A stretch of DNA of 64,000 bases from an uncultured Thermoplasmata archaeon. GTDB lineage: Archaea > Thermoplasmatota > Thermoplasmata > Lutacidiplasmatales > UBA184. The stretch lies in NCBI GenBank assembly GCA_963842165.1, contig CAWJFK010000025.1, positions 125,681 to 189,680 of the forward strand. The letters are read 5' to 3'. The translations under genes and the position numbers were made by a program. Shown here in pieces: positions 1 through 55,217 of the stretch. The notes below the pieces were generated by a model that saw nothing but the letters and a program-made list of their open reading frames with translations, searched no databases and was not told where the DNA came from. Numbering within the stretch: position 1 is the stretch's first letter; each line of letters begins with the position of its first letter.

Positions 1-41
1 AGACTGGGGACCTCTATACCTCGGACCAGAACCAGGGAACC

Positions 42-1269
42 TTGATGCTCATCTCCCCTACGGGCGGCACCGGCCCCACCCACTATCCGGTGACCTTCCA
101 CGAAACGGGCCTACCGGCGGGCACTTCCTGGAGCGTCACCTTCAACGGGACCTTAGGGAGCTCGACCACCGCCTCGATCGCCTACTCTGTCCTGAACGGC
201 GGTTATTCGTTCACCACCGGCACGGTGGCCGGGTACACCGCCAACGTGACCGGCGGCCCCGTCACCGTCAACGGAGCGCCCGTCGATGTGGAGATTGGGT
301 TCACCTCGACCGGGACTCCGACCTACGCCGTGACCTTCGACGAAACGGGTCTGCCGTCTCCCCCCTCGTGGACCGTGACCCTCGAAGGTTCACCCCAGAG
401 CGCGACGACGACCATGATCCAGTTCGTGGAGGTCGACGGCTCGTACTCCTTCTCCGTGGGGGCCGTGACCGGCTACACGGCGGCTCCGTCGTCCGGAACG
501 GTGGTCGTGAGCGGGGGGCCGCTGACCCGGGACATCGTGTTCACTCCGACCACGGCCCCGCCCCCCACCTACCCCATCACGTTCACCGAGACCGGGCTCG
601 ATTCCGGGACCAGCTGGTCCGTGACCCTCGCCGGAACGTTGCTCTCCTCGAGCACCTCGACCATCGCGACCACCGCTGCCAACGGAAGCTACCCCTACAC
701 GGTCTCTTCCGTGACGGGGTACACCGCGAGCCCGGCCTCCGGTACCGTGACCATCACCGGGGCGGGCCAGACCGTCGCCATCACGTTCACGGCCACACCG
801 ACCGGCACGTCGCCGCCTCCGTCACCGTCCGGCTTCTTGGGATTGCCGGGTTCGGACGGGTACATCCTGTTGGGCATCCTCGTCGCCGCGATCGCCGCGA
901 TCCTCTTCCTGGTCCTGGCGCGGCGGCCGAACTATCCGATCGTCTTCACGGAGACCGGTCTGCCCGGCGGGTACGCGCTGGTCCGTGCGGCTGAAGGACG
1001 TCACCGAGTTCTCGGAGACGGAGACGATCCGATTCAGTCGGCCGAGCGGCACCTACGAGTATGAAGTGGCTCCCTCGGCGGGCCATTCCCCCACCCCGGC
1101 GACCGGCTATGCGGTCGTCGAGCGGGAGCGTCGAGACATCCCGTCCGGTTCGGCCCCCCCTAAACGGACCCGCGCATCGGACCGGGTGGTCGAGCGGCCG
1201 GCCCCTGGATTCTGTTCAAGTCCGTCCATTCGGTGGAGAAGCCAAGGCCAGCAGGCCCGAGTCCTCTGA
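42..1269 (+). CDS. Surface repeat protein with about four tandem ~95-aa repeats (P-T-Y-P-V-T-F-x-E-T-G-L-P...S-W-S-V-T), Thr/Ser-rich, hydrophobic anchor segment; reading continues in another frame after ~1000
   Basis: ORF 42..1064 shows tandem repeats and the TM helix ILLGILVAAIAAILFLVLARR. A further repeat (NYPIVFTETGLPGG, then WSVRLKDVTEFSETE in frame of ORF 985..1269) follows the anchor, indicating a frameshift or collapsed repeat. Confidence 0.5.
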
Positions 1270-1985
1270 TCAAGGAAGCGCCAACGCGTTCGTGGTCCCG
1301 GTGTAGCTCTGCATGCCTTGGGCGACGAATTGGAGCCCTAGTCCCGTAGGATTCTGGGTGCCCATATCGATCACAATGGAATCGGTAGTGTTGAGAGGGG
1401 TGCCGTCCGTGACACCGCTCCCGAGGGTCCAGTCCGACGACATTCCCATCGAACCCCCGACGGCGGCATACTGGGCCACCACCGTGCCGTTCGAGTTCAG
1501 GATGGAGAATCCGTGGCCGGCGGTCGCCACGTCGATCGCCCCTCGCTCGGTCTGGACGAAGAACCACGCGGATCCAACGGTGATCGTAGACTCGATGATG
1601 CTCAGCCCGTAATAGAAGTCGGCGGGGCCCTGACAGCCCGTGGAGAGGAAAGTGCTGCCGACGGGGCATTGTCCGACCGTCGGAACGCCAGGAAGGAAAG
1701 CGGTACGAGGGGGGTGTTGCCGGCACAGTGGCAGAAACCCCGGCCGATCAGGCCCCCGTACTCCAGCCCTACCAGCCCTACTACGAGTGCCGCGGCTGAG
1801 ACGACCACCACGACCGCTACGACGATGGCAACGTCCGGACTCGGCCGTGAAGGCGCGGGTGGCCAGAGCGAGCGCGGCCCATAGGTCGGAGACCCTGGCC
1901 CGGCGACCCGAGCCCCGCACGCCGGACAGAAGGGGTAACCGGGGGTGAGGGGTCGGCCGCATTGCGCGCAGGGCGAGGATGCCAT
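1270..1985 (-). CDS. Zinc-ribbon / TM / pilin-like extracellular-domain protein (frameshifted near 1610-1640)
   Basis: N-terminus is MASSPCAQCGRPL...CPACG (C-x2-C...C-x2-C), followed by a Pro-rich linker and the TM helix VAIVVAVVVVVSAAALVVGLVGL. The C-terminal domain (ORF 1270..1962) is homologous to the pilin C-domain at 41503..42140 (IVIDMG...TG.GL...LALP terminus). Confidence 0.5.
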
Positions 1986-2193
1986 CCGCGTCTCCCCCGC
2001 CTCTACCACACGACCCAGGTCGTGTTAAACTGGGCGTGCACGTGCCATGGCCCGGGGCGGGACGTACTCCCGACCGTGGGGCCAGGTCCGGTACGCTTTC
2101 CCGATGGACTCTCCCTCCCCAATGAGGCCGTCAAGCCCGGACCACCCAAGCCGTGATATAGCGCGCTCCGGTGGCACGACGGTCCGTCTCGAA

Positions 2194-3341
2194 ATGCCCG
2201 ATTTCTCGCTGTCCGCGGAGCAGGAAAGTCTCCGGGATATGGCCCGGAAGTTCGCACGGACGGAGATGGTGCCGCACGCGGCCGAGTGCGACCGGACCCC
2301 TCGGTTCCCGGAGGAGATCTACCGCAAGGCGTACGACCTCGGCCTCATGAACCTCAACGTACCCGTCGAGTACGGGGGCAGCGGCCTCGGCCTCTTCGAC
2401 CAGTGCCTCATCGTCGAGGAGCTCGCCCACGCCTGCGGCGGCATGACGACCTCCGTGATCGCGAACTGCCTCGCCCTGGAACCGATCCTCCTCGGCGGTA
2501 CGCCCGAGCAGAAGGAACGCTTCCTCACGCCGTTCTGCTCCGAGTACCACTTTGCGTCCTTCGCCCTCACCGAGCCGTCGGGGGCAGCGACGCCGGGGGG
2601 CTCTTGACCCGGGCCCGCCGGGACGGCGACCATTACGTCCTCGACGGCGAGAAGTGCTTCATCACGAACGCTCCGCACGCTTCCCTGTTCACGGTCTTCG
2701 CGACGGTCGACCCGAGCTTGCGGACGAAGGGCATCACGGCGTTCGTCGTCCCTCGCTCCGCCGTTGGCCTCAGCACCGGCAAGGACGAGGAGAAGATGGG
2801 CCATCGGGCCTCGTCGACCAGCACGGTGCGGTTCGACGGCGTGAAAGTCCCGGTCGAAGACCGTCTCGGCGAGGAGGGCGGGGGCTTCTCGATCGCGATG
2901 CGGACGCTCGACCAGACCCGGACCCCGATCGGTGCGCTGGCCACCGGAATCGCCCAGGCCGCCCTCGACCACGCCGCCGCCTACTCCCTCAAGCGTCAAT
3001 CGTTCGGCAAGCCGATCAGTCAGCACCAGGCGATCCAGATCAAACTCGCCAACATGGCCCAAGCCGTCCACGCCGCGCGCCTCCTGACCTGGCAGGCGGC
3101 CTGGACGATCGACCGCGGAGCCAAAGGAACGCTCGAGTCGTCGATCGCGAAGTGCTTCGCTTCCGATGCCGCGCTGCACGTGGCGGACGAGGCGATCCAG
3201 ACCTTCGGCGGGTACGGCTACATGAAGGAGTATCCGGTCGAGAAGCTCCTCCGGGACGCGAAGCTCACCCAGATCTACGAGGGAGCGAACGAGATCCAAC
3301 GGACGGTCATCGCCCGCGAACTGCTCCGTGAGTACGCCTGA
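2194..3341 (+). CDS. Acyl-CoA dehydrogenase (frameshift near 2600)
   Basis: N-terminal part in ORF 2047..2607 ([20 protein letters not shown]...); the C-terminal ACAD domain in ORF 2286..3341 ends ...[22 protein letters not shown]. Confidence 0.8.
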
Positions 3342-19296: not shown

Positions 19297-19971
19297 CTAG
19301 TGGGGAAGCGCGGCCCCGCACTTGGCGCAGAACTGGGCTCCCGCGGCGTTGGGGGTGCCGCACGAAGCACAGGTCTTGCCCATGGCGGGGGGCGCGGTGG
19401 GCTGTCCCCACGTCTGCGGCGGGGGAGCTCCCCACTGCGCCTGCTGGGGGGGCGCGCCCATCTGGCCGGGCTGGCCCCACTGTCCCTGGGCTCCCTGGGC
19501 GCGAGCCGCGTTGATCAGGGGGTCGAACTTGAGGTAGGCGATCAGGAGGAGGATTCCGAGGATGATGCCGCCCAGGATGAACCCGAGGATCATCCAGATG
19601 AGCGTAGAGGCCTTCGCCTGCTCATACTGGCGTGCGTTGACCATCGCCTCGAGGCTCTTCATCTTGAGGTAGATGATGACGTCAATGACCCCGAAGATAA
19701 CGAGGATGAGCGGGAGCACCAAGAGGACTCCGAGCCCGCCTGCATAGGCCCCCGTGCAGACCGATCCCACGACGTTGTTACACGCGTTGTACGCCGCGAC
19801 TACTAGGCCCACGTACGCGAGGCCCCCCAGGAACAGGAGAATCCCAAAGATGATCGCAAGGATTCTCACGATGTGGTACATCGATTTGATCGACTGCGCC
19901 TCTGGCGGCTCATAGGTGTAAGGTGCGTTCAATTTGCCCACCGTGCCGTAGCCAACGGCGGCAGTCAGCAT
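19297..19971 (-). CDS. Membrane protein with Gln/Gly/Pro-rich linker and C-terminal zinc ribbon
   Basis: 224 aa with 4 TM helices, a QGAQGQWGQPGQMGAPPQQAQWG linker, and C-terminal ...CASCGTPNAAGAQFCAKCGAALPH. Confidence 0.55.
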   Translation of the reverse strand: MLTAAVGYGTVGKLNAPYTYEPPEAQSIKSMYHIVRILAIIFGILLFLGGLAYVGLVVAAYNACNNVVGSVCTGAYAGGLGVLLVLPLILVIFGVIDVIIYLKMKSLEAMVNARQYEQAKASTLIWMILGFILGGIILGILLLIAYLKFDPLINAARAQGAQGQWGQPGQMGAPPQQAQWGAPPPQTWGQPTAPPAMGKTCASCGTPNAAGAQFCAKCGAALPH

Positions 19972-33007: not shown

Positions 33008-35770
33008 CCCGCCTCTCCGACCTGCTCGCCGCGGGCCAGTCGCCCTGGCTCGATTTCATCCGGCGGAGTCTCCTCACGAGCGGCGACCTGCGCAAGATGG
33101 TCGAGGTCGACGGGATCACCGGGGTCACCATCAACCCCACGATCTTCGACAAAGCGATCGCGGGTAGCCAGGACTACGACGAAGCGATCAAGGCGTTGCT
33201 CGCGCGGGAGCCGCGGGTTGCCGGCCGCGGAGCTGTACGAGCGGCTCGCCGTCGAGGACGTCACCCGCGCCGCCGACGTCCTTCGCCCGGTCTTCGACCG
33301 GACCGGCGGGAAGGACGGGTTCGTCAGCCTAGAGGTCTCACCGCGTCTGGCGCACGACACGGCCGGCACCGTCGCCGAGGCCCACCGCCTGTGGGACGCG
33401 GTCGATCGTCCGAACCTCCTGATCAAGGTCCCGGCCACCACCGAAGGAATCCCGGCGATCGAGGAGTTGCTTGCGTCCGGGATCAACGTCAACATCACCC
33501 TGATGTTCTCCATGGCTCACTACGAGGCGGTCGCTCAGGCGTATCTGCGCGCCCTCGGCCGCGCTCCCGACCACAACCGACTCGCGTCGGTCGCCTCGGT
33601 CTTCGTCGAGCCGGATCGACACCGCGGTCGATCAGCTCCTCGACGCGGTGGCCACGCCCGAGGCGAAGGCGCTGAGGGGTCAGGTCGCCATCGCCAACTG
33701 CCGCGTGCTCTACGCCCGGTTCCAGGAGATCTTCGAGGGCCTCCCGTTTGCCGCGTGGGAAGGGAAGGGGGCGCGCCCCCAACGCGTGCTCTGGGCGAGC
33801 ACGAGCACGAAGGACCCTAGCGTACCGGGACACGATGTACGTCGAGGAGCTCGTCGGGCCGGACACGGTGGACACCATCCCGCCGGCGACCCTCACCGCG
33901 TTCGAGGACCACGGTGTGGTCCGGCCCGGTGCGGTCGTACGCGGGGTTCCCGAGGCGCGGGCCCTCCTCGATCGGCTGGCGCGGCTCGGGATCGACCTCG
34001 CGAAGGTCACGGACGACCTCCAGGTCGAGGGCGTCGCCCTGTTCAGTGCCTCCTACGAACACCTCTTGAAATCGCTCGACGCGAAGAAGAACGCGCTCCT
34101 CGCGGGTGCGATCGACCCGCTGTCCTGGAGTCTCGGTTCGGCCGCGTCGCGCGTGGCGACCCGGATCGCTTCCTGGCAGGAGTCGCACGTGGGCGATCGG
34201 GTCTGGAAGAGCGACCCCAGCCTCTGGCCCGCCGCCCCGCCGGCGGACGTGGCTCAGCGGATGGGCTGGCTCCGTCTCCCGGAGACGATGCATCATGAGG
34301 TCAGCGAACTCGTTGCGTTCGCGGACGAAGTTCGCGCCGAAGGGATCCGGCACGTGGTCGTCCTCGGGATGGGGGGTTCGAGCCTCGCCCCCGACGTCTT
34401 CGCCCGAATGTTCGAGCACCAAAGCGGATTCCCGGAACTGCTGGTTCTCGACAGTACCCACCCCGACGCCGTGGCCGCGATGGGCCGGCGGGTCGACCCG
34501 CGGCACACCCTGTTCGTCGTCTCCAGCAAGTCGGGGACCACGACCGAGCCACTCTCCTTCTTCCACTACTTCTGGAACGTGCTGCGCGACCTGGGCGCTC
34601 CCCCGGGGCGGCACTTCCTCGCGATCACGGACCCCGGGACCCCGCTCGAGGGGTTGGCGAAGGAACGACACTTTCGGGAAACGTTCACGGCCGTCCCGAC
34701 CGTCGGGGGTCGGTACTCCGCTCTCACTCACTTTGGGCTCGTCCCGGCGGCCCTCGCCGGAGTCGATGTCCGAACGATCCTCGACCGGGCCCGAGCGATG
34801 GCAGCGAATGTCGGCCCGACGGTCCCCGTCGCGCAGAACCCTTCCCTCGGACTCGCCGCCGTCCTCGGCGAGATGGCGACCTCCGGCCGGGACAAGCTCA
34901 CGTTCTACGCCACCGGCGCGTTCGCACCGTTCCCCGACTGGCTGGAACAGCTGGTGGCGGAAAGCACGGGGAAGATCGGCCGCGGGATCGTGCCCGTCGT
35001 CGAGGAACCTCGCCTCCCTCCCGAGAACTACGGCTCCGACCGGCTGTTCGTGGCGATCGAGGGAGGCGGGCCGCCCGACGTTCCTCTGACGGCCCACCTC
35101 GCGCGGCTGGAGAGCGCGGGTCAGCCGATCGTGCGCCTCCGCGTTCCGGAGCTGACGGACCTGGGGCAAGAGTTCTTCCGGTGGGAGCTCGCGGTCGCCG
35201 CCTCCGGGAACGATCCTCGGGATCGACCCCTTCGACCAGCCGGACGTCGAGCTCGCGAAGGACCTCGCTCGCCAGGCGATGGCCGGACCGGCGGGCAGCG
35301 GCGGTACGCCTTCCGTCCCCACGGTCCTCGCGGCCGACCCCACGGACCTCGGGAGGGCCGTGCACGAGTGGAGGAAGTCGATCCGTCCGGGGGACTACGC
35401 TGGCCTCCAGGCCTACCTCGCTCCGACTCCGGAGACGAGGGCCGCGCTCACCACGCTCCGCGGGAGGATCGGCGAGCGACACCACATCGCTACGACGCTC
35501 GGGTTCGGACCTCGGTTCCTCCACTCGACCGGGCAGCTCCACAAGGGGGGCCCGCCGTCGGGGCTCTTCCTCCAGATCGTCGACGCCCCGAAGCACGACC
35601 TCGAAGTACCCGGGACGGACTACACCTTCGGGCAGCTCATCCACGCGCAGGCGCTGGGCGATTATCAAGCGCTTCGGCAGAAGGGGCGACGGGTGCTGCG
35701 CGTGGACCTCGGAACCCGACGTTCCGGGAGGGTTGGCACGACTCGCCGAGGCCTTCGATGGCTAGGATCT
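33004..35770 (+). CDS. Bifunctional transaldolase / glucose-6-phosphate isomerase fusion (several frameshifts)
   Basis: Tal part: [24 protein letters not shown]...[35 protein letters not shown] part (in ORF 33748..37098): ...[16 protein letters not shown]...[15 protein letters not shown]...; the end ...[10 protein letters not shown] plus TAG at 35768..35770 is in another frame. Confidence 0.75.
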
Positions 35771-36390
35771 CGCTGCTGTTGTGGGATGTGGGCGGCGTCC
35801 TGTTGTCCAACGGGTGGGACCACACCGGCCGCGCGGCCGCCGCGGAGCATTTCCACCTGGACGCGAAGGACCTCGAGCGCCGGCACGAAGCGGTCGCCGA
35901 AGGGTTCGAGACCGGACGTCTGGACCTCGACCACTACCTCGCCGGCACCGTCTTTCAAGTCCCTCGCCCGTTCTCCCCGGACGATTTTCGCGCGTTCATG
36001 TGGGCTCGATCGACCCCGCACCCTCTCGCCCTCGTGTGCGCGCAGGCCCTCCGGAAGGAGGGACGGTACGTGATGGCGGCGCTCAACAACGAATCCACGG
36101 AGCTGAACGGTTACCGGATCTCTACGTTCCACCTGCGGGAGGTGTTCCATGTCTTCCTGAGCTCCTGCTACACCGGCCGCCGGAAACCGGACCCCGAGGC
36201 GTACCGGTATGCGCTGCAGATCACGCGACACGATCCCGACGAGGCCCTGTTCCTGGACGACCGGGAGGAGAACATCGCCGCCGCCGCACGCCTCGGTCTT
36301 CGCACCGTGCGCGTGCGCGATCCCGCGCGCGTCCGGGAGGAGCTCGCTTCGGCGGGGATCGTCCGGGGTAAGGAGGGGAGCGATGGAAGT
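35763..36390 (+). CDS. HAD-superfamily hydrolase (subfamily IA-like)
   Basis: [22 protein letters not shown]...FLDDREENIAAAARLGLRTVRV; the 3' end is approximate. Confidence 0.55.
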
Positions 36391-37291
36391 GGGAATCGTC
36401 GGCCTCGGAAAGATGGGCGGCAACATGACGGTCCGGCTGGTCCGGGGCGGTCACCGGGTCGTGGGGTACGCGCGGACCCCGGCCGTCGTCGAAGCGGTCG
36501 TTCAGCACGGCGCGGTCGGGGCGAACTCGCTCGCCGACCTGGTCCGCCAACTGAAGCCGCCTCGGGTCGTGTGGATGATGATCCCGTCCGGGGATCCGGT
36601 CGACCAAACCCTCGCCCAACTCCGTCCGCTCCTCTCCGCGGGGGACCTCGTCGTGGACGGAGGCAATTCCTACTATCGGGACACCCTGCGTCGGGCCGCG
36701 CTCGTCACGAGTTGGGGATTCCGATTCGTGGACGTCGGCACGAGCGGCGGGATCTGGGGTCTCGCGGAGGGGTACTCGATGATGGTCGGCGGGGCCGAAG
36801 TCGATGTCGAACGGCTCCGACCGATCCTCGAGACCCTGGCCCCCGGCCCGACGAAGGGCTGGGGCCGCATGGGGCCGGTCGGCTCGGGCCACTTCGTGAA
36901 GATGGTCCACAACGGGATCGAGTATGGCCTCATGCAGGCGTACGCCGAGGGGTTCGCGGTCCTCCAGGCGAAAAGCGACTTTGCTCTCGACCTCCACCAG
37001 GTCGCCGAGGTGTGGCGGGACGGCAGCGTCATTCGCTCGTGGCTGCTCGAACTCACCGAGGCGGCCCTCGCCGAGAACCCGACGCTGAAGGGGATTGAAC
37101 CCTGGGTCGCCGACTCGGGAGAGGGACGGTGGACCGTAACGGAGGCGATGGAGCTCAACATCCCGGCGCCGATCATCACCCTCGCCCTCCAGCAGCGGTT
37201 GCGCTCCCGCGAGACCGACCCGTTCACCGAACGCCTCCTCGCCCTGATGCGCAACAAGTTCGGCGGCCACGAAGTCAAGACGGAGCCGTAG
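36383..37291 (+). CDS. gnd: 6-phosphogluconate dehydrogenase, decarboxylating (short YqeC/Gnd-like form)
   Basis: MEVGIVGLGKMGGNMTVRLVRGGHRVVGY...GGNSYYRDT...GSGHFVKMVHNGIEYGLMQAYAEGF.... Confidence 0.85.
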   Translation: MEVGIVGLGKMGGNMTVRLVRGGHRVVGYARTPAVVEAVVQHGAVGANSLADLVRQLKPPRVVWMMIPSGDPVDQTLAQLRPLLSAGDLVVDGGNSYYRDTLRRAALVTSWGFRFVDVGTSGGIWGLAEGYSMMVGGAEVDVERLRPILETLAPGPTKGWGRMGPVGSGHFVKMVHNGIEYGLMQAYAEGFAVLQAKSDFALDLHQVAEVWRDGSVIRSWLLELTEAALAENPTLKGIEPWVADSGEGRWTVTEAMELNIPAPIITLALQQRLRSRETDPFTERLLALMRNKFGGHEVKTEP

Positions 37292-37293
37292 GG

Positions 37294-38752
37294 ATGGCCG
37301 AGCCCCTCGCTCGCCCGCACGTCTTCGTCGCCTTCGGGGCGACGGGGGACCTCATGCAGCGCAAGCTGTTGCCCGGCGCTCTTCCACCTCCAGCAGGAGG
37401 GACGGTTCCCGGCGGGCAGCATCGTCCTCGGGGCGGCGCGGCACCCGCACGACGACGCCGGCTTTCGCGCGACGTGCTCCCAATCGTTGCTCACCGACGC
37501 GGCCGGTCCCGAGTCGGAGGTCCGGACGTTCTGCGGATCGAAACTGTTCTACCAGTGTCTGGGAGGTGACGGCCCCACCGGCTATCCCGGCCTCCGCGCG
37601 CGCATCGAGCAATTGGAACGGGACCACGGCCTTCCGGGGAACCGTATCTTCTATCTCGCGCTCCCGCTGGAAGCCTTCGGTCCCGCCCTCGAGGGTCTGG
37701 GCCAAGCGGGGCTCGCCAAAGGTCCGGGGTGGACCCGGGTCGTGGTCGAGAAGCCGTTCGGCCGAGACCTCGCGTCGGCGGTAGCGCTGAACGCGCTCGC
37801 GCACCGCTACTTCGAGGAGAAGCAGATCTTCCGCATCGACCACTACCTGGGCAAGGAGACCGTCCAGAACCTGCTCGTCTTCCGGTTCGCCAACGCGTTC
37901 GTGGAGTCCGACTGGAACCGCGACCGCGTGGAGCAGGTCGAGATCACGGTGGCCGAGAGCCTCGGCGTCGAGGGGCGCGCCGGCTACTACGAGACCGCGG
38001 GCGCCCTCCGCGATATGGTCCAGAACCACGTCACCCAGATCCTCACGCTGACCGCGATGGAGCCCCCGGCCCGGCGCACCGAGGACGAGATCCGCGACGA
38101 GAAGGTGAAGGTGCTCCGAAGCACCTTGCCGATCCGCCCCCAGGACGTGGTTCGGGCGCAGTACCAGCGAGGGACGGTCGGCGGGGCCGCCGTCCTCGGG
38201 TATCGGGAAGAGCCGGGCGTTTCGCCGACCTCGACGACCGAGACCTACCTCGCCCTCCGGCTCCGGATCGCCAACTGGCGGTGGCACAACGTCCCCTTTC
38301 TGGTCCGAACGGGAAAGCGCCTCCCGGCGAAGTCGAGCCGTGTCGTGGTGACGTTCAAGGCCCCGCCGGTCTCGTTCTTCCAGTCCGAGAAGGAATACGA
38401 GATGAACCCCGACCGGCTCACGATCCTGCTCCAGCCGGAGGAGGGGTTCGAGATCGCCTTCGAGATCAAGGTTCCCGGACGCGAGATGCGCGTCCAGACC
38501 CACCGGATGAAGTTCCACTACGCCGACGTCTTCGGAGAGCTGCCGGACGGCTACGAGACGCTCGTGCAGGACGTCATGATCGGCGATGCGAGCCTGTTCG
38601 TCCGCGCCGATGAGGTCGAAGAATCCTGGCGGCTGTACGGTCCGATCCTCGTCGACCCGCCGCCGTTGGTCTTCTACCCCGCGGGCTCCGAAGGCCCCGA
38701 AGAGGCGAAGCGCCTCGCCGAAGCCTGGGGGCACCGGTGGAGCACGGAGTAG
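37294..38752 (+). CDS. zwf: Glucose-6-phosphate 1-dehydrogenase
   Basis: ...FVAFGATGDLMQRKLLPAL... (frameshift near 37370); ...EKPFGRDLASA...RIDHYLGKE...DMVQNHVTQILTLTAMEPP. Confidence 0.85.
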
Positions 38753-39518
38753 GTCGCATCGTTCACATCTACCCGGACCTACCGGCGGCCGCCCGGCGGC
38801 CGCGGCCCATCTCTTCACGCGAGCCGAGGAATCCGTCCGGGCGCGCGGTCGGTTCGCGTGGGTCCTGGCCGGCGGCCATACCCCCGAGGGTCTGTACCAC
38901 CTGCTTTCCCGGACCTACCGTCGCCGGTTCCCGTGGGGGGCCACGGAGGTCTACTTCGGTGACGAACGATGCGTGTCCCCCCGCGCCCCCGAGAGCAACT
39001 TTGCGATGGCCCGGTCGTCGCTCCTGGCCCAGGTCGCGATCCCGGCCCGCCGGATCCACCGGCTGCGGGGAGAGCTTCGCCCGCCCTCTCGGGCCGCCTC
39101 CGACTATGCCCGTCGACTCGGTTCTCCGGCCGCCCACCGGGGCATGGACCGGGCCCTGTTCGACCTGGTACTTCTGGGAATCGGGGCCGACGGGCACACG
39201 GCCTCTCTCTTTCCGAAGGATCGAGCTCTGCGCGAACGCTACCGCTCCGTGGTGAGCGTCCGCCGTCCGGGCCAGCCCCCGTTCGTCCCACGCCTCACGC
39301 TCACCCTTCCCGCGATCGCGTCCTCGCGCGAGGTCGTGTTCCTCGTCCCCGGCCCGGAGAAGGCCGCCGCAGCCGCGGCCATCTTTTGGTCCTTCCCGGA
39401 GGGCGATCCGAAGTGGCCGGCCAGCCTGGTCCGGTCCGCGGGCTCGACGGTCTGGTTCTTCGACCGCGCCGCGGCGTCCGAACTCCCGCCGGGACTTCGG
39501 CGGCGCGGAGCGGCCTAG
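38737..39518 (+). CDS. pgl: 6-phosphogluconolactonase (frameshift near 38790)
   Basis: ...WVLAGGHTPEGLYHLL...FGDERCV...LVLLGIGADGHTASLFP.... Confidence 0.75.
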
Positions 39519-40295
39519 CGACGCCCGGTCGGGTCGGGCTCGCCGGCGAGCTGGGGCGGGATGGCGCGTCGCGGCGGCAAAGACCTCGGGGCCGTTGGCG
39601 GGGAACCCGGGCCAACTCGACCCGCCCCATAGTCGGACGCCTCCCACGATGGCCTCGCGGTTGTCGCCGCGCCGGACTCCGGGCAGCATCCGGTCGAGCT
39701 TGCGCACGTTCCCCCCGCCGAGCACGACCTCGTCCGGCTCGAGCGCTGCCTCGAGGAGCTCGACTACCCGGTAGACCTCCTTCTGCCACTTCCGGCGACC
39801 GAGTCGATCGAGGCTGGCCTCCCCCACGTACTCTTCGAACGTCCGGCCCTTCTTGTACGGCAGGTGGGCGAGCTCCATGGGTTGGAGCTTCCCCTCGACG
39901 ATCATGGCCGAGCCGAGTCCGGTTCCGAGGCCCAGGAAGAGCATGTGGCCGCCGCGGTAACTTCCCAAGCCTTGCAGGGCGGCGTCGTTCACGATACGGA
40001 CCGGGCATCCGAACGCCGCCTCGAAATCGAAACCGACCCACCCGGCGCCGAGGTTGTGCGGTTCGCGAGCGATTCGACCTCGGACGACTAGCCCGGGGTA
40101 GCCCATCGCGATGACATCATACCGTTCTCCGGCCAAGAGCTTCGAGAGCCCGCGCACCATCCGTGACGGCGTGAGCCGGGGCCCGGACGGGATCCGCCGT
40201 TCCTTCGCGCTGTCGGAGAACGCGGCCTTGACATGACTCCCACCGATATCGAGCACGAGGATTCGGGAGGGTGCCCGTGGTTCCGGCGTCGACAT
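39519..40295 (-). CDS. ROK-family glucokinase (polyphosphate/ATP glucokinase-like)
   Basis: ORF 38769..40334(-): MSTPEPRAPSRILVLDIGGSHVKAA...IAMGYPGLV...; the 3' end is approximate. Confidence 0.65.
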
Positions 40296-40323
40296 GTTCG
40301 AGGCCCAGGAACGCGCGGGGCGG

Positions 40324-41065
40324 TTAAGGCTCACCGCGAGCCGGCCGGGAACGGGGCGAGTCCCGCGAGCGGCGAGGGCTCGACCCGGTCGGGAAGGCGA
40401 ATCGGAGGGACAGGAGATCCCCTCCGCGTCGGACCCCGTCGAGCTCGCCCCAGAGGGGGTGTTCGGGCGCGAAGGTCCGACCCGCCCACCAGCCGGGTCG
40501 ATTCATGTGGCCCCGCCCCGCGACCTGAGGTGCGAGCGTGAGGAACAGGGCCTCCAACCGGTGGTCCTCGAAGAACGTTCCCATGAGATGAGGTCCCCCT
40601 TCGATCAGTACCACGTCGGGGCGAATCCGCGCGCGGACGGCGTCGAGGCACCTGGGCGGCACCAATCTCTCCCGAGTGCCGCAGGGCGACCACGTCCACG
40701 CTCGGAACGTGACGGGCCCGGACCAAACGTCGGGCCCCTTGCTCATTGGTCACGATCAGTGCGGGGACTTGGCCCCGTGCGAAGAGCGGCAGGCGCAGGT
40801 CCAGTCGGCCCGTGGCCGTGACGATCACGTTCAACGGCATCGGGGGCTTCTTCAGCGAACGGCGCAAGGCGGCGTACTCGCGGGCCGCGGCAGGGTACAC
40901 GTGGTCGGCGGTCCAGGTGTGCCGAGGAACGGCTCGCAACGTGCCCGCCCCTACAATGACGACGTCGGCGAGGGCGCGCAGCAATCCCATTACGAATCGG
41001 TCGTACGGGTTGAACCCAGTGATCTCACTCCCGCTGGAGACTCCGTGGGCGTGGAGCGACACCAC
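40324..41065 (-). CDS. RibD C-terminal domain / dihydrofolate-reductase-like reductase (frameshifted)
   Basis: ...VMGLLRALADVVIVGAGTLRA... plus ...LIEGGPHLMGTFFEDHRLEALFLTLAPQVAG.... Confidence 0.6.
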
Positions 41066-41427
41066 GCCGTCAAGCGTCCTGTCGCGAAATTGCCCATGAC
41101 GAACGGCCTCGAAGAATGCGGGGGGATCCGGAGTGTCCCGTACACTCGAGCGAGGGCACGGGGCAATGGGACAGGCCGGCCCCGGGCACGGTCGAACAGC
41201 GACTCGAGCGGTGGGAGCGAATCTCGCGTCCCTCTAGGATCGGTCGCCGTCGCCGGTTGGGGCTTCGGGGAACGAAGGGTTGGGTCAGGTCCCATGTGGC
41301 GCACTTCTCGGGACGGTTCCGCCCCTCCCGCCCGACCTCGGGGCCCCTTCTAAGGTCGGTGGCGTCGGGCGCCCATCGCATCGGTCGTCGTCAGAACCGA
41401 CCTCTCCCTCGGGGTTCCGATTGAGTC

Positions 41428-41439
41428 GGAGCAATCATT
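41428..41439 (+). promoter_or_regulatory. AT-rich TATA-like element (CATTAAAATAAG) upstream of pilin gene
   Basis: The only AT-rich patch in the 440-bp divergent intergenic region. Confidence 0.3.
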
Positions 41440-41502
41440 AAAATAAGATGGACCCCGAAAAGAAACGGTCAGACCCCGAATACCCGACGGAGGAAGCACT
41501 TC

Positions 41503-42140
41503 ATGAACGTTCTCAACGCGAGCCCCCGGAACTGGAGAAAGAGACCGAGTCGGGCCGTGTCGCCCATCATCGCCACTATTCTCCTCGTGGCGGTCGCGGT
41601 CGTGCTGGCCGCCATTCTGTACGTGCTGGTCTCGGGGCTCGTCCACGGCCCCGGTCGACGCCCATTGGGAGCGCCTTCGCCGCGGGGCACCCGGCGACAG
41701 GTACTTGCGCGGCGGGGAGCGCCCAGTCGCTGGGGGCCGCGCCGATCTCGGGTGGTTGCAAGGCGGGCGATTTCATCTACACCCTTACGGTCGAGTCGTC
41801 CACGGTCTCGCTCGGGAGCGTGCTCTTCGTGGTCAAGACCGCCTCGGGCGCGGTCTACTCGGGTGGGAGCGCCAGTTCCTCCTTCGCACTGATCGATATC
41901 ACGAATCACGTCGCCGCCCTCAGCGTCACCGGTGCGACGATCGCGATGACCACGACCTGGCAAGCCTACGGTCTCACGACCACCGCTCCAACCTACACTT
42001 CGTCGAGCGCGTTGACCAACCTCCACACCATCGTGATCGACATGGGCTCCGCCTCCCCCACGACCGGCCAGGGGCTCAAGCTCGTCGCGGTGGGCACGGG
42101 CTCCTTCTCGGGCGCCACTGGTCCCCTCGCCCTGCCCTAG
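41503..42140 (+). CDS. Archaeal type IV pilin-like protein with class III signal peptide (frameshift near 41650-41700)
   Basis: MNVLNASPRNWRKRPSRAVSPIIATILLVAVAVVLAAILYVLVSGL (Pilin_N-type motif). The C-terminal domain in ORF 41448..42140 ends ...IVIDMGSASPTTGQGLKLVAVGTGSFSGATGPLALP. Confidence 0.7.
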
Positions 42141-43300: not shown

Positions 43301-44858
43301 TCAAGGTCGCGAGGTCGGGGGTTCCAGACTCGAGGGCCAGAGGGAGTAGAGGGCCCGGGGAGGGGGCTTCCTGCCCCGTCTTCTCACCAATGCGAACGTC
43401 ACCACCGAACCTAGGACCACGACGAGGACCACTCCAAGAATCGCCCATTCAATCGTGGTGGTTATCAGAGGAGTTTGGGAGAATGAGATACTCACATTCA
43501 CCGGAGAGCTGGAGAGGTTCAGTTCCCCTGATGAGGGTGTCGCGCGGTAACCCTGCACCGCGCCTATCTGGTACGAGTAGATCCCGGTCAGGGCCGGGAA
43601 AGTAACCACGGGGTCCGTCGTCATTTGGATGTCGCCGTCTAGCGTCACCTCCCAGGCGGTGCGCTGGGGAAGTCCGCTCTCCGAGAAGGTGACATTGCTG
43701 GGGGGATGATTTGCGAGGATCGCGAGCGTTCCATTCTGCGTGTTTGCCGCGTAGACCAGCCCGTCCTCGGGGTCGACCGCAATCCCACTGAAGGAGCCTC
43801 CCAAGGCCAAGGTCTGCGTAACCCTGTTCGTGGCGTCGGAGATCACGGTAACCCCGGAGGATCCGGTCGACGAACACTTGGTCCGTGATATTGTCGTACG
43901 CAACGCCCAAGGGCGACGAACTCACCGAGACATTTGCCACGACTTGATTGGTCGAGTCCGAGATGACAGTGACTGCTGGGTCGGGATAATCCCCGACGAA
44001 GATCTCCCCCTTCCCGGAGTCGTACGCAAGATAGACACCCGACACGGGCGACACGGTGGCGACGACCGAGTCCTGAGTGTCGGAGATTACGCTCACCCCG
44101 TTCGAGCCGGGGAGAAACACCTCTCCTTTCCCCGAGTCGTAGGCAAGTTCGCTGCCCTCCGACGTCCCGTTGATGGTGGCCACGACCGAGTTGGTCAAAT
44201 CCGAAATTACGCTCACCCCACTCGGCGTACCCGCGACGAAAAGCTCTCCACGGGCAGAGTCGAACGCGATTCCCCCCGGTCCTCCCTCTCCCCCCACGAA
44301 CAGTGAGGCGGAGACCGAGCCATTGGCACCCGACACGACATAGACCGCACCGGTTCCCCAGTCGGAGACGAGCGCCTCCCCCCGCGCGGCATCGTAGGCC
44401 ACTTCCTCGGGGTAGACTCCCACTTTCGTTGCAGAGGACACTCGGTGCGTCAGGGGGGACACGAAGCTCAGATTCCCCCCTGTGTCGCGAGCACGTCCGG
44501 GACTCGTGACGAGGACTCCCCCCGTACCGGAATCGTACGCTAGGTCCCGTGGGAGGGTTGAGGCAGTTTCGACGGAAGCTAGAAAGTTCCCGGAGATCAG
44601 CGTGTTGTTGGCGAGAACCAGGGTGGTGGCGACGTACCAAGTTCCGGGTGCGGCGGAAGCACCGTGAGGCACGGCCGTCGGAGCGACAAAGTGAGCGGCA
44701 ACTGCTTGGGAGACTGCCCCCGGGAAGATTGTTGATGCCACGAGGAGAATAACGAGCGAAACCTCCCACGGGCGGAACAGTTGAGACGGAGAGGCCGTCG
44801 TCACCAACTCGAACGAAGGTGGAGCACGCAATGAACCTTTCCGGAAAAGTTGGCCCAC
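43301..44858 (-). CDS. Secreted YVTN beta-propeller repeat surface protein with C-terminal TM anchor (frameshift near 43900)
   Basis: N-terminal signal/TM; repeated ...AYDSGKGEIFVGDYPDPAVTVISDSTNQVVANVSV... units; C-terminal ...TTIEWAILGVVLVVVLGSVVTFALVRRRGRK. Confidence 0.65.
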
Positions 44859-45605: not shown

Positions 45606-45977
45606 TCAGGGCCCCTGTGGTTGCTGGCATACGGGACAGTAGACCGCCGGGCGAGAGATCAGCGTCCCACACCGGATGCAGTACTTTCCATTCGGCGGAG
45701 GAGGGATGGGGGTCAGGTACACCGGGGACGGTACGGGTGGCGGAGCGGAGGGGGGCATGGGAATAACGTTCCCGGGGGCCGCGACGGTCGGGCCCGGACT
45801 GTAGAGGGGTGGCGGTGATGGAGGAGACGAACCTGGGGGACCCACGGACGCGGAGGGTGGCGGGCGCGGCATGACCGGACCCGTCGCTACATCGCCCTGG
45901 GGCAGAGTGAACCCGCACTTCGGACAGAAGAGAGCCCCGTCCGGTGCGAGCTGGCCGCAGTGGAGACAGAACGGCAC
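45606..45977 (-). CDS. Double zinc-ribbon, proline-rich small protein
   Basis: MPFCLHCGQLAPDGALFCPKCGF... followed by a PPPSASVGPPGSSPPSPPP linker and then CIRCGTLISRPAVYCPVCQQPQGP. Confidence 0.5.
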   Translation of the reverse strand: MPFCLHCGQLAPDGALFCPKCGFTLPQGDVATGPVMPRPPPSASVGPPGSSPPSPPPLYSPGPTVAAPGNVIPMPPSAPPPVPSPVYLTPIPPPPNGKYCIRCGTLISRPAVYCPVCQQPQGP

Positions 45978-54517: not shown

Positions 54518-55217
54518 TCACTCGCGACGGGGGCGCCGGCGCGGGCGCTCGTCCTCGTCCCCGTCGTCTCGGCTCTCCCGCCGACGGAATCCTCCGCCCG
54601 GAGGCCGACTGTACGGGCGCGATCCACCCCGACCGCCGAACTTCCCTCGGGGAGGTCCGCGTTCGAACCGGCGCGCACCGCCACCCCGACCCCCCTCGAA
54701 CTCGCGACGGGGAGGCAGGGTGAACCGATTGCCGCAGGAACCGCATTCGCCCGAGATCGTTCCGTCCGGCGCCGTGGTGAACCGGAGGGGACCTCCGCAC
54801 TCTCGGCAGGGTCGGGCGTTCGACGGACGGGAGCCGGGACCTGAATCGTCAGAACGCTCGGGCCGAGGCGCGCCCCTTCGCGGGAACTCGCGGGGTGCCA
54901 TCCCTGCCGGGTACGTACGAAGAGACCGCTCCGCATCCGGTACAGGTGGCTTCGATCCCGGGGCCACCGGAGGAACGGAACGTCAGCGGAGCGCCGCAGG
55001 CCTGGCAGGGCGGCCCGGCCGCTGCCGGGGCGGCGGTCTTCCAGGATCGAGCCGCGTCGGGACCGCCCGCCGTCCCCGGCTGGTCGGTGCCCGGGCCGGC
55101 CCCCTCCTGCAGAACGGTGAGCTGGTGTCCGCATCCACCGCAGGTGCCGGTCAGCACGGTGGTCGTTCGAGCGTCATATTCCATGGCCGTTCCACAGTCG
55201 GGACAGGTGCGCGTCAT
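54518..55217 (-). CDS. Triple zinc-ribbon repeat protein with Arg/Gly-rich (RGG-like) C-terminal tail, frameshifted
   Basis: MTRTCPDCGTAMEYDARTTTVLTGTCGGCGHQLTV / PCQACGAPLTFRSSGGPGIEATCTGCGAVSSYVP / PCRECGGPLRFTTAPDGTISGECGSCGNRFTLP followed by GGRGGGARRFERGPPRGKFGGRGGSRPYSRPPGGGFRRRE. Confidence 0.55.

Follow-up and report, generated by a model that had tools for sequence, protein, structure and literature searches.

The archaellum proteins ArlF and ArlG (FlaF/FlaG) keep an uncleaved N-terminal helix. Both have been assigned a role at the cell envelope (PMC12448462; Banerjee 2015). In Cuniculiplasma, pilin genes lie about 500 kb from the assembly machinery (PMC12448462), and in Sulfolobus, membrane proteins with an N-terminal Zn ribbon (arCOG07264) adjoin a type IV pilus-like bindosome system (Makarova et al. 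2016; PMC4858521). We compared these systems with a gene found in a 64,000-nucleotide stretch of DNA from an uncultured Thermoplasmata archaeon (assembly GCA_963842165.1, contig CAWJFK010000025.1, positions 125,681 to 189,680), which we refer to as the window. The gene lies at 1270..1985 on the minus strand and encodes a zinc ribbon, a proline-rich linker, a single transmembrane (TM) helix, and a C-terminal domain homologous to the head of a type IV pilin encoded elsewhere in the window. We call it the zinc-ribbon gene.

The resemblance to archaeal type IV pilins is extensive, since the 146-amino-acid (aa) head, the linker, and the C-terminal half of the helix are all homologous to the window pilin. 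In contrast to pilins, however, the zinc-ribbon protein lacks a class III leader and cleavage motif, the SPIIATILL helix start is not conserved, and a predicted cytoplasmic extension of ~50 aa carries the ribbon; an extra juxtamembrane cysteine pair is also present. As with the Cuniculiplasma CdiP pilins, both window genes are located away from machinery. The likeness to ArlF/ArlG is one of concept: a relative of filament subunits that keeps its N-terminal membrane helix and sits at the envelope beside the machinery. Yet the zinc-ribbon gene lies outside any machinery operon, a zinc ribbon is absent from ArlF/G, and the zinc-ribbon protein had no Pfam or NCBIfam match to the archaellin or FlaF/G families. 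When compared by description, arCOG07264-type proteins share the same anchoring module, an N-terminal C4 ribbon (Zn_Ribbon_1 or DZR) followed by a TM segment, but the extracellular partner here is a pilin-head paralogue, which our literature searches found described nowhere. Pilin-like proteins of "System 2" (bioRxiv 10.64898/2026.04.22.720090), again by description, also lack a processing motif and are presumed to be membrane associated. Unlike the zinc-ribbon gene, they are encoded inside machinery loci, and a zinc ribbon is not mentioned for them.

The zinc-ribbon gene and its parts are as follows.

1270..1985 (-): zinc-ribbon/TM/pilin-head gene, 238 aa once a 1-nt deletion is mended
1914..1970 (-): C4 zinc ribbon, C6-x2-C9-x10-C20-x2-C23-G, predicted to be cytoplasmic
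1833..1907 (-): Pro-rich cytoplasmic linker, probably disordered (low model confidence)
1770..1832 (-): single TM helix, aa 52-72, probably N-in/C-out (hydropathy, AlphaFold2 [AF2], charge flanks)
1725..1733 (-): juxtamembrane C-H-C motif, C85 and C87, predicted on the outer membrane side (orthologue alignment)
1705..1706 (-): single-base deletion splitting the gene into two frames (alignment with two related contigs, L003 and L001)
1273..1704 (-): C-terminal pilin-head-like, beta-rich domain, ~146 aa, ending in ALP-COOH (alignment, AF2)

On the minus strand, reading of the frames gave an ATG start at 1985 and a stop at 1270-1272, in agreement with the original prediction. The frame opened by this ATG encodes MASSPCAQCGRPLTPGYPFCPACGARVAGPGSPTYGPRSLWPPAPSRPSPDVAIVVAVVVVVSAAALVVGLVGLEYGGLIGRGFCHCAGNTPL and then runs into unrelated sequence, while a second frame contains TAFLPGVPTVGQCPVGSTFLSTGCQGPADFYYGLSIIESTITVGSAWFFVQTERG and continues to TNALALP before terminating at the stop. 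At 1705/1706, the window (G+C content, 68.7%) has CTC-GTAC, where the two related contigs have CTCGGCAC/ATCGGCAC, and one added base yields an uninterrupted 238-aa open reading frame (ORF). Direct reading of the alignment also revealed a TTTAA box ~40 nt upstream of the ATG, inside a block conserved in three genomes.

Each part of the proposed N terminus was recovered. The ribbon shows the layout expected of the module, two CxxC knuckles ~10-15 residues apart, and scores above the gathering cutoff of Zn_Ribbon_1 (PF13240; E = 1.5e-5, 25.1 bits against a cutoff of 25), with metal binding predicted. Relatives scored somewhat higher (26.5 bits for P0002 and 28.2 bits for P0142), and the same model matched 12 of 18 diverse members of the zinc-ribbon family. 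The four ribbon cysteines were invariant or at least 90% conserved across these 18 members, against a mean column identity of 45%. The family profile also weakly matched the ribosomal zinc ribbons eL37, eL40, and bL32 (E ≥ 0.03). Downstream of the ribbon, the linker had a predicted local distance difference test score (pLDDT) of 59-63 in the AF2 model of orthologue P0002, which places a helix at residues 55-83. The corresponding TM segment has 21 residues with a mean Kyte-Doolittle hydropathy of 3.1. These results bear out the original description of an N-terminal zinc ribbon, Pro-rich linker, and one TM helix. Topology could be assessed from the lysine and arginine residues near the helix: across 19 members, there were 21 on the N-terminal flanks and 12 on the C-terminal flanks. 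Because of this bias, the homology to an extracellular pilin head, and a cysteine pair shared with the pilin, we infer that the protein is oriented N-in/C-out. The shared pair, C107 and C118, lies in the head. The C-H-C motif beside the membrane is a different feature and is invariant within the orthologue clade. A juxtamembrane cysteine pair (CxC or Cx2-6C) was found in 10 of 21 zinc-ribbon proteins and 20 of 97 TM-only relatives but in none of 131 class III pilins, which makes it a marker of the membrane-retained forms, where it may act as a stalk disulfide, in dimerization, or in metal binding.

The second gene needed for the comparison is the pilin.

41503..42140 (+): major type IV pilin gene, 212 aa once a 1-nt deletion near 41647 is mended
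41503-41556 (+): pilin leader, predicted cleavage SRA↓VSPIIATILL
41670-42137 (+): pilin head domain

The frame opened by the ATG at 41503 encodes MNVLNASPRNWRKRPSRAVSPIIATILLVAVAVVLAAILYVLVSGLVHGPG, and the remainder of the protein, from STPIGSAFAAG to GPLALP, is in another frame that stops at 42138-42140. Once mended, the protein aligns end to end with an intact 212-aa pilin (P0006) at 95% identity, and it has at least 420 relatives. It matched Pilin_N (PF07790; E = 8.6e-7) and TIGR02537 (E = 4.7e-10). In addition, the pilin family profile matched CdiPB of Cuniculiplasma divulgatum (PDB 8REY; E = 4.3e-8) starting from the mature N terminus VSPIIATILL, and the same structure was the top Foldseek hit (probability, 0.99). 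Because of the matches to both family models and the agreement with 8REY in sequence and fold, we take the window gene to encode a genuine type IV pilin with a predicted cleavage site at SRA↓VSPII.

We found strong homology between the C-terminal regions of the two proteins, as had been claimed from the sequence. BLASTP aligned them at 34% identity over 157 columns (E = 2e-21), and tblastn identified only these two copies of the head in the window. The shared LALP terminus can be read directly in the ends TNALALP and GPLALP. Comparison of the family profiles (18 zinc-ribbon proteins versus 45 pilins) with hhalign gave a probability of 100% (E = 2e-53, 172 columns), pairing zinc-ribbon columns 70-244 with pilin columns 34-213. 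Besides the head, the homology takes in the GPG-TPIG-[ST]-AF linker and, within the membrane helix, the C-terminal half; the pilin leader and the first turns of the helix lie outside it. Since the homology reaches the linker and half of the helix, most of the pilin body has been reused, beyond the head alone. From the alignment, the segment replaced appears to run from the leader through the cleavage site to the opening turns of the helix. Homology across the whole helix with a relic cleavage site was considered and rejected: only the C-terminal half aligned in hhalign, and a hidden Markov model (HMM) of the pilin N terminus gave no match.

Structure prediction yielded the same picture. AF2 models of orthologue P0002 (pLDDT, 87.3) and pilin P0006 (pLDDT, 90.9), used as stand-ins for the window proteins, both contained a long helix, a short helix, and seven strands in the same order. 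Head pLDDT was above 93 in the zinc-ribbon model and at least 90 in the pilin model. Thus, in the P0002 model and the hhalign comparison, the zinc-ribbon protein has the pilin arrangement of a helix followed by a beta-rich head.

Despite this shared body, the defining feature of a pilin, its class III signal, was missing. Neither Pilin_N nor TIGR02537 matched the window zinc-ribbon protein at E ≤ 1, with the window pilin serving as a positive control, and Pilin_N matched none of the 18 zinc-ribbon family members at E ≤ 0.01. When a custom HMM was built from the pilin leader and helix, it matched all class III forms (E = 5e-7 to 1.5e-32) and no zinc-ribbon member at E ≤ 10. The residues preceding the helix vary among zinc-ribbon members (SRPSPD, PRSSPI, PESDNV, QGASPV, and others), while in pilins R17, V19, S20, and the start of the helix are at least 90% conserved. 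The original prediction that no pilin signal precedes the head therefore held in these tests. Without the class III signal that defines pilins, the zinc-ribbon protein should not be filed as a pilin.

The zinc-ribbon fusion is real, conserved, and under purifying selection. Uninterrupted orthologues of 235-240 aa span 100% of the mended protein at 60-67% identity, and one fragment is 87% identical. The intact orthologues include P0002-P0005 and a further one, P0133, which is 61% identical to P0002 and occurs on many contigs. In all orthologue genomes, the gene occupies a slot between a surface protein of ~1000-1100 aa and an acyl-CoA dehydrogenase-etfBA operon, with synteny kept down to 60% identity. 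In the P0133 lineage, the zinc-ribbon gene alone is inverted in its slot (L011-L014, 10001-10720; compare L001, 10001-10723). Against four orthologues, the ratio of nonsynonymous to synonymous substitution (dN/dS) was 0.29-0.41 overall. By segment, dN/dS was 0.25-0.32 in the head, 0.24-0.41 in the helix and CxC region, and 0.36-0.66 in the ribbon, while the linker (~0.5-1.4) was near neutral. Beyond these orthologues, a word-indexed protein search with a diverse zinc-ribbon alignment scored 8,000 candidates and returned 8 proteins, and is not a census. A scan of genome contigs with the close clade as query found only the metagenome-assembled genome (MAG) AcS1-45. In this MAG, P0002 and the pilin P0034 are encoded on a single 40,546-bp contig; the window is the other case in which the zinc-ribbon gene and the major pilin share a contig.

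The frame breaks in both genes are sequencing or assembly errors. We surveyed the window against two related contigs, L003 (88% identical, window 1-2243) and L005 (90% identical, window 34480-42140), and found that single-base gains and losses both occur, at about one event per 0.8 kb, with most of them in homopolymers of G or C. In 7.7 kb of genes that are intact in the 90%-identical contig, there were ~9 frame-breaking indels. The pilin gene is short of one base at ~41647, and the acyl-CoA dehydrogenase, EtfB/EtfA, and upstream surface protein genes are split likewise. In the surveyed parts, nearly every gene was broken relative to the 88-90%-identical contigs. We treat the breaks as errors because the indels are window-wide, bidirectional, and mostly in G/C runs, while the relatives are intact. 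A programmed frameshift and a pseudogene were rejected on the same pattern. Given this density of indels, any ORF-based reading of the window needs frameshift correction.

To characterize how widely the head is used, we searched a profile of the head alone (A2, 33 sequences) against 1.84 billion cluster representatives at 50% identity. The search returned 299 representatives at E ≤ 1e-3, of which 88 had E ≤ 1e-30. Family members share a domain of ~146 aa with a conserved cysteine pair, a [IV]-x-[IV]-D-x-G motif, and a G-T-T-x-P-L-x-L-P end; the window protein has these traits, with profile matches of the 1.9e-57 class. From the best 150 hits, we classified the N termini of the 149 proteins that were newly returned.

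Short tail, TM helix, and head: 42
Fragment: 27
Tail, TM helix, and additional domain(s), or 2-3 tandem heads: 23
Beginning at the TM helix, possibly through truncated gene calls (as for P0001): 21
Zinc ribbon and TM helix: 15
Tail, TM helix, FxExGL repeat, and head: 11
Class III pilin: 10

Plain tail-plus-TM forms, with or without extra domains, thus account for about 76 of the 149. The tally qualifies the view that the head is displayed either as a pilus subunit or as a zinc-ribbon protein. Both forms are real, and 15 further ribbon representatives were found, but the choice is wider than these two, since the tail-plus-TM forms are the majority and true pilins a minority. In all 136 proteins with a complete domain, the head was at the extreme C terminus, and most ended in x-L-P. 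In proteins with two or three tandem copies, the last copy still formed the end of the protein. In a rough neighbor-joining tree, zinc-ribbon forms fell into at least three to four clusters interleaved with TM-only forms, and one of them (P0142) adjoined the class III pilins. Although the tree is crude, this pattern suggests that N-terminal modules have been exchanged repeatedly. Every family member with a named source came from a MAG labeled "Thermoplasmata archaeon." The pairing had not been recognized as one described before, and we found nothing to contradict this: neither the head nor the intermediate domains are covered by a Pfam or NCBIfam model, and literature searches for the pairing of a pilin head with a zinc ribbon yielded no description. 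The fused combination and the family built on the C-terminal head are not covered by the libraries and papers searched; the parts are known.

Neighboring genes also speak to the setting of the head. No pilus machinery was found beside the zinc-ribbon gene or the pilin, in the window or in the related loci examined. Within the window, none of the frames carried a T2SSE Walker A motif, and Pfam searches of ten ORFs from 42-63 kb gave no T2SSE match, with 5-34 kb lying outside the Pfam scan. The loci of distant zinc-ribbon members were on contigs of 1.5-4 kb and were uninformative for context. The immediate neighbor of the zinc-ribbon gene is the surface protein.

1..1269 (+): 3' part of a surface protein of ~1000-1100 aa with ~80-aa FxETGLPxGTxW repeats and a C-terminal hydrophobic segment, frameshifted in the window

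This neighbor is conserved (other copies at L001 10945-14214 and L011 6498-9809), and a homologue of its repeat separates the TM helix from the head in family member P0155 (40% identity, E = 6e-11). The conserved neighborhood and this domain fusion therefore link the head to other envelope proteins and not to a pilus motor. The surface protein also had faint NHL-type matches and one more repeat after the hydrophobic segment near its C terminus.

We hypothesize that the zinc-ribbon protein is a membrane-retained, nonpolymerizing paralogue of the pilin that shows a pilin-type head at the cell surface, an interpretation to which we give slightly better than an even chance. The protein would be a single-pass N-in/C-out protein with its ribbon and disordered linker in the cytoplasm, followed by the TM helix, a short cysteine-containing stalk, and an extracellular immunoglobulin (Ig)-like beta-sandwich. 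The sandwich and the head-proximal half of the helix would be a paralogue of the organism's own major pilin, in which the class III leader and cleavage site have been swapped for the zinc ribbon and linker. With the leader and site replaced, there should be no processing by prepilin peptidase and no extraction into a fiber, so that the protein would escape both and stay in the membrane. The ribbon may serve as a cytoplasmic topology lock or docking handle. Cultured Thermoplasmatales have no S-layer and instead carry an unordered exterior protein layer of ~20 nm (PMC12448462). Most plausibly, the anchored proteins of the head family would be part of such a noncrystalline protein coat or of an adhesive surface.

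Several observations weigh against this interpretation. The charge bias is modest, and the predicted topology rests on it together with homology to the pilin head. Foldseek searches with the head returned no close solved structure, the best hits (E of about 2e-3) being generic Ig V domains. The retained half helix and linker would also fit docking onto pilin subunits. In three of seven clade members (P0002, P0003, and P0133), the sequence R-S↓(S/G)-P-x-V precedes the helix and resembles a cleavage site, and it is possibly a relic of a class III site. Finally, the cultured Thermoplasmatales with an exterior layer are only distant relatives, and the comparison with their coat is by analogy.

It is possible that the protein works at the base of the pilus. 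As an uncleaved paralogue, it could dock under the fiber through its half helix and head and act as a basal, terminating, anchoring, or stator-like subunit whose ribbon contacts the assembly ATPase or platform, comparable to the role proposed for ArlF/ArlG. The homologous region takes in the GPG-TPIG-AF linker and reaches the C-terminal half of pilin helix alpha-1, and the gene shares a contig with the major pilin both in the window and in MAG AcS1-45. There are also precedents in related systems. ArlF/G are described as periplasmic elements that anchor the archaellum machinery (PMC12448462), pilin-like proteins without class III motifs are reported from archaeal type IV filament loci (bioRxiv 10.64898/2026.04.22.720090), and N-terminal Zn-ribbon membrane proteins are associated with the Sulfolobus bindosome loci (PMC4858521). 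However, the gene was beside neither pilus machinery nor pilins in any locus examined, and it is conserved next to the surface repeat protein and the acyl-CoA dehydrogenase operon. Anchored proteins with multiple or tandem domains and an envelope-like character make up most of the family, and the half of the pilin helix that forms the fiber core, the N-terminal one, is not detectably conserved. A role at the pilus base is the main alternative, though we consider it unlikely. Still less probable is the specific proposal that the ribbon-anchored paralogue is a basal subunit that caps the proximal end of the fiber and is tied to a cytoplasmic partner in the S-layer-less Thermoplasmata.

Alternatively, the protein could be a transmembrane sensor or relay, in which the Ig-like head binds a ligand or a surface neighbor and the ribbon signals to a cytoplasmic partner, in the manner of one-component transmembrane regulators or anti-sigma-like proteins. 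The layout would suit such a role, with a domain outside the cell joined by one TM helix to a small, conserved domain in the cytoplasm. Despite the small size of the ribbon module (~22 aa), its cysteines are strictly conserved, and transmembrane transcription regulators are reported to be widespread in bacteria and archaea (PMC10269533). Yet a lone 22-residue ribbon comes with no recognizable DNA-binding or enzymatic domain, the linker evolves nearly neutrally, and no conserved regulator or partner gene is nearby. Many close relatives have a mere Pro-rich tail in place of the ribbon, which means that the ribbon is dispensable for the core role of the family. On balance, signaling seems quite improbable.

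We also weighed whether the protein might be an atypical prepilin, with the ribbon and linker forming a long leader that is cut by the class III signal peptidase to release a mature minor pilin. Its predicted topology matches that of a prepilin, with the N terminus inside and the cut expected on the cytoplasmic side, and the R-S↓(S/G)-P-x-V of three orthologues is reminiscent of the pilin sequence R-A↓V-S-P-I-I. This motif is nevertheless absent from the window protein (S-R-P-S-P-D), P0004 (P-E-S-D-N), and P0005 (Q-G-A-S-P), and no consistent motif occurs among the other 12 diverse members. Together with the failure of Pilin_N, TIGR02537, and the custom HMM to match, and the lack of conservation of the core-forming SPIIATILL segment, which is at least 90% conserved in pilins, this renders processing as a minor pilin very unlikely. 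The least credible alternative, that there is no functional fusion and the frames represent separate ORFs, a pseudogene, or programmed frameshifting, draws on the fact that the window frame breaks between the TM region and the head and that the pilin breaks at the equivalent place in the same direction, but five relatives carry the zinc-ribbon protein in one frame, indels in both directions are numerous in the window, mostly in G/C homopolymers of genes intact elsewhere, and dN/dS is 0.3-0.4 on either side of the break.

Other observations concern the remainder of the window. An ORF of 123 aa at 45606-45977 (-), just upstream of an ORF for an Rpp21-like RNase P subunit, has an N-terminal FC..CG...FC..CG ribbon, a long Pro-rich stretch, and a C-terminal CxxC...CxxC, with no TM segment. 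At 54731-55205 (-), three tandem CxxCG...CxxCG ribbon modules of ~25 aa each, with ~65-aa spacing, are encoded in one frame, and at 19315-19371 (-) an FC..CG-type zinc ribbon forms the very C terminus of an ORF (ending in CASCGTPNAAGAQFCAKCGAALPH before the stop). From these sequences, the FC..CG-type ribbon module appears to be reused often in the host genome. A frameshifted surface protein at 43301-44858 (-), 1.2 kb downstream of the pilin and convergent with it, combines beta-propeller-like repeats of the motif YDSGKGE.F/VISD with a single FxESGLP-type repeat and has a TM anchor at its C terminus. Synteny with the 90%-identical contigs L004 and L005 does not extend to this region.

Together, our findings indicate that the head of a major archaeal pilin is not specific to pili. 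It is the C-terminal module of a large, unannotated family of mostly membrane-anchored proteins, which supplies specific candidates for the unordered exterior layer found in place of an S-layer in Thermoplasmata. The family may also be viewed as a natural experiment on the step from a membrane protein to a polymerizing pilin, with the leader, its cleavage site, and the opening helix turns as the features of interest. The zinc ribbon provides a small, conserved cytoplasmic handle whose partner could be sought. Should the zinc-ribbon protein prove to be associated with pili, it would be a new kind of pilus component. If it were a basal subunit, it would be an anchor or terminator of pili for wall-less cells, known from no archaeal or bacterial type IV system.

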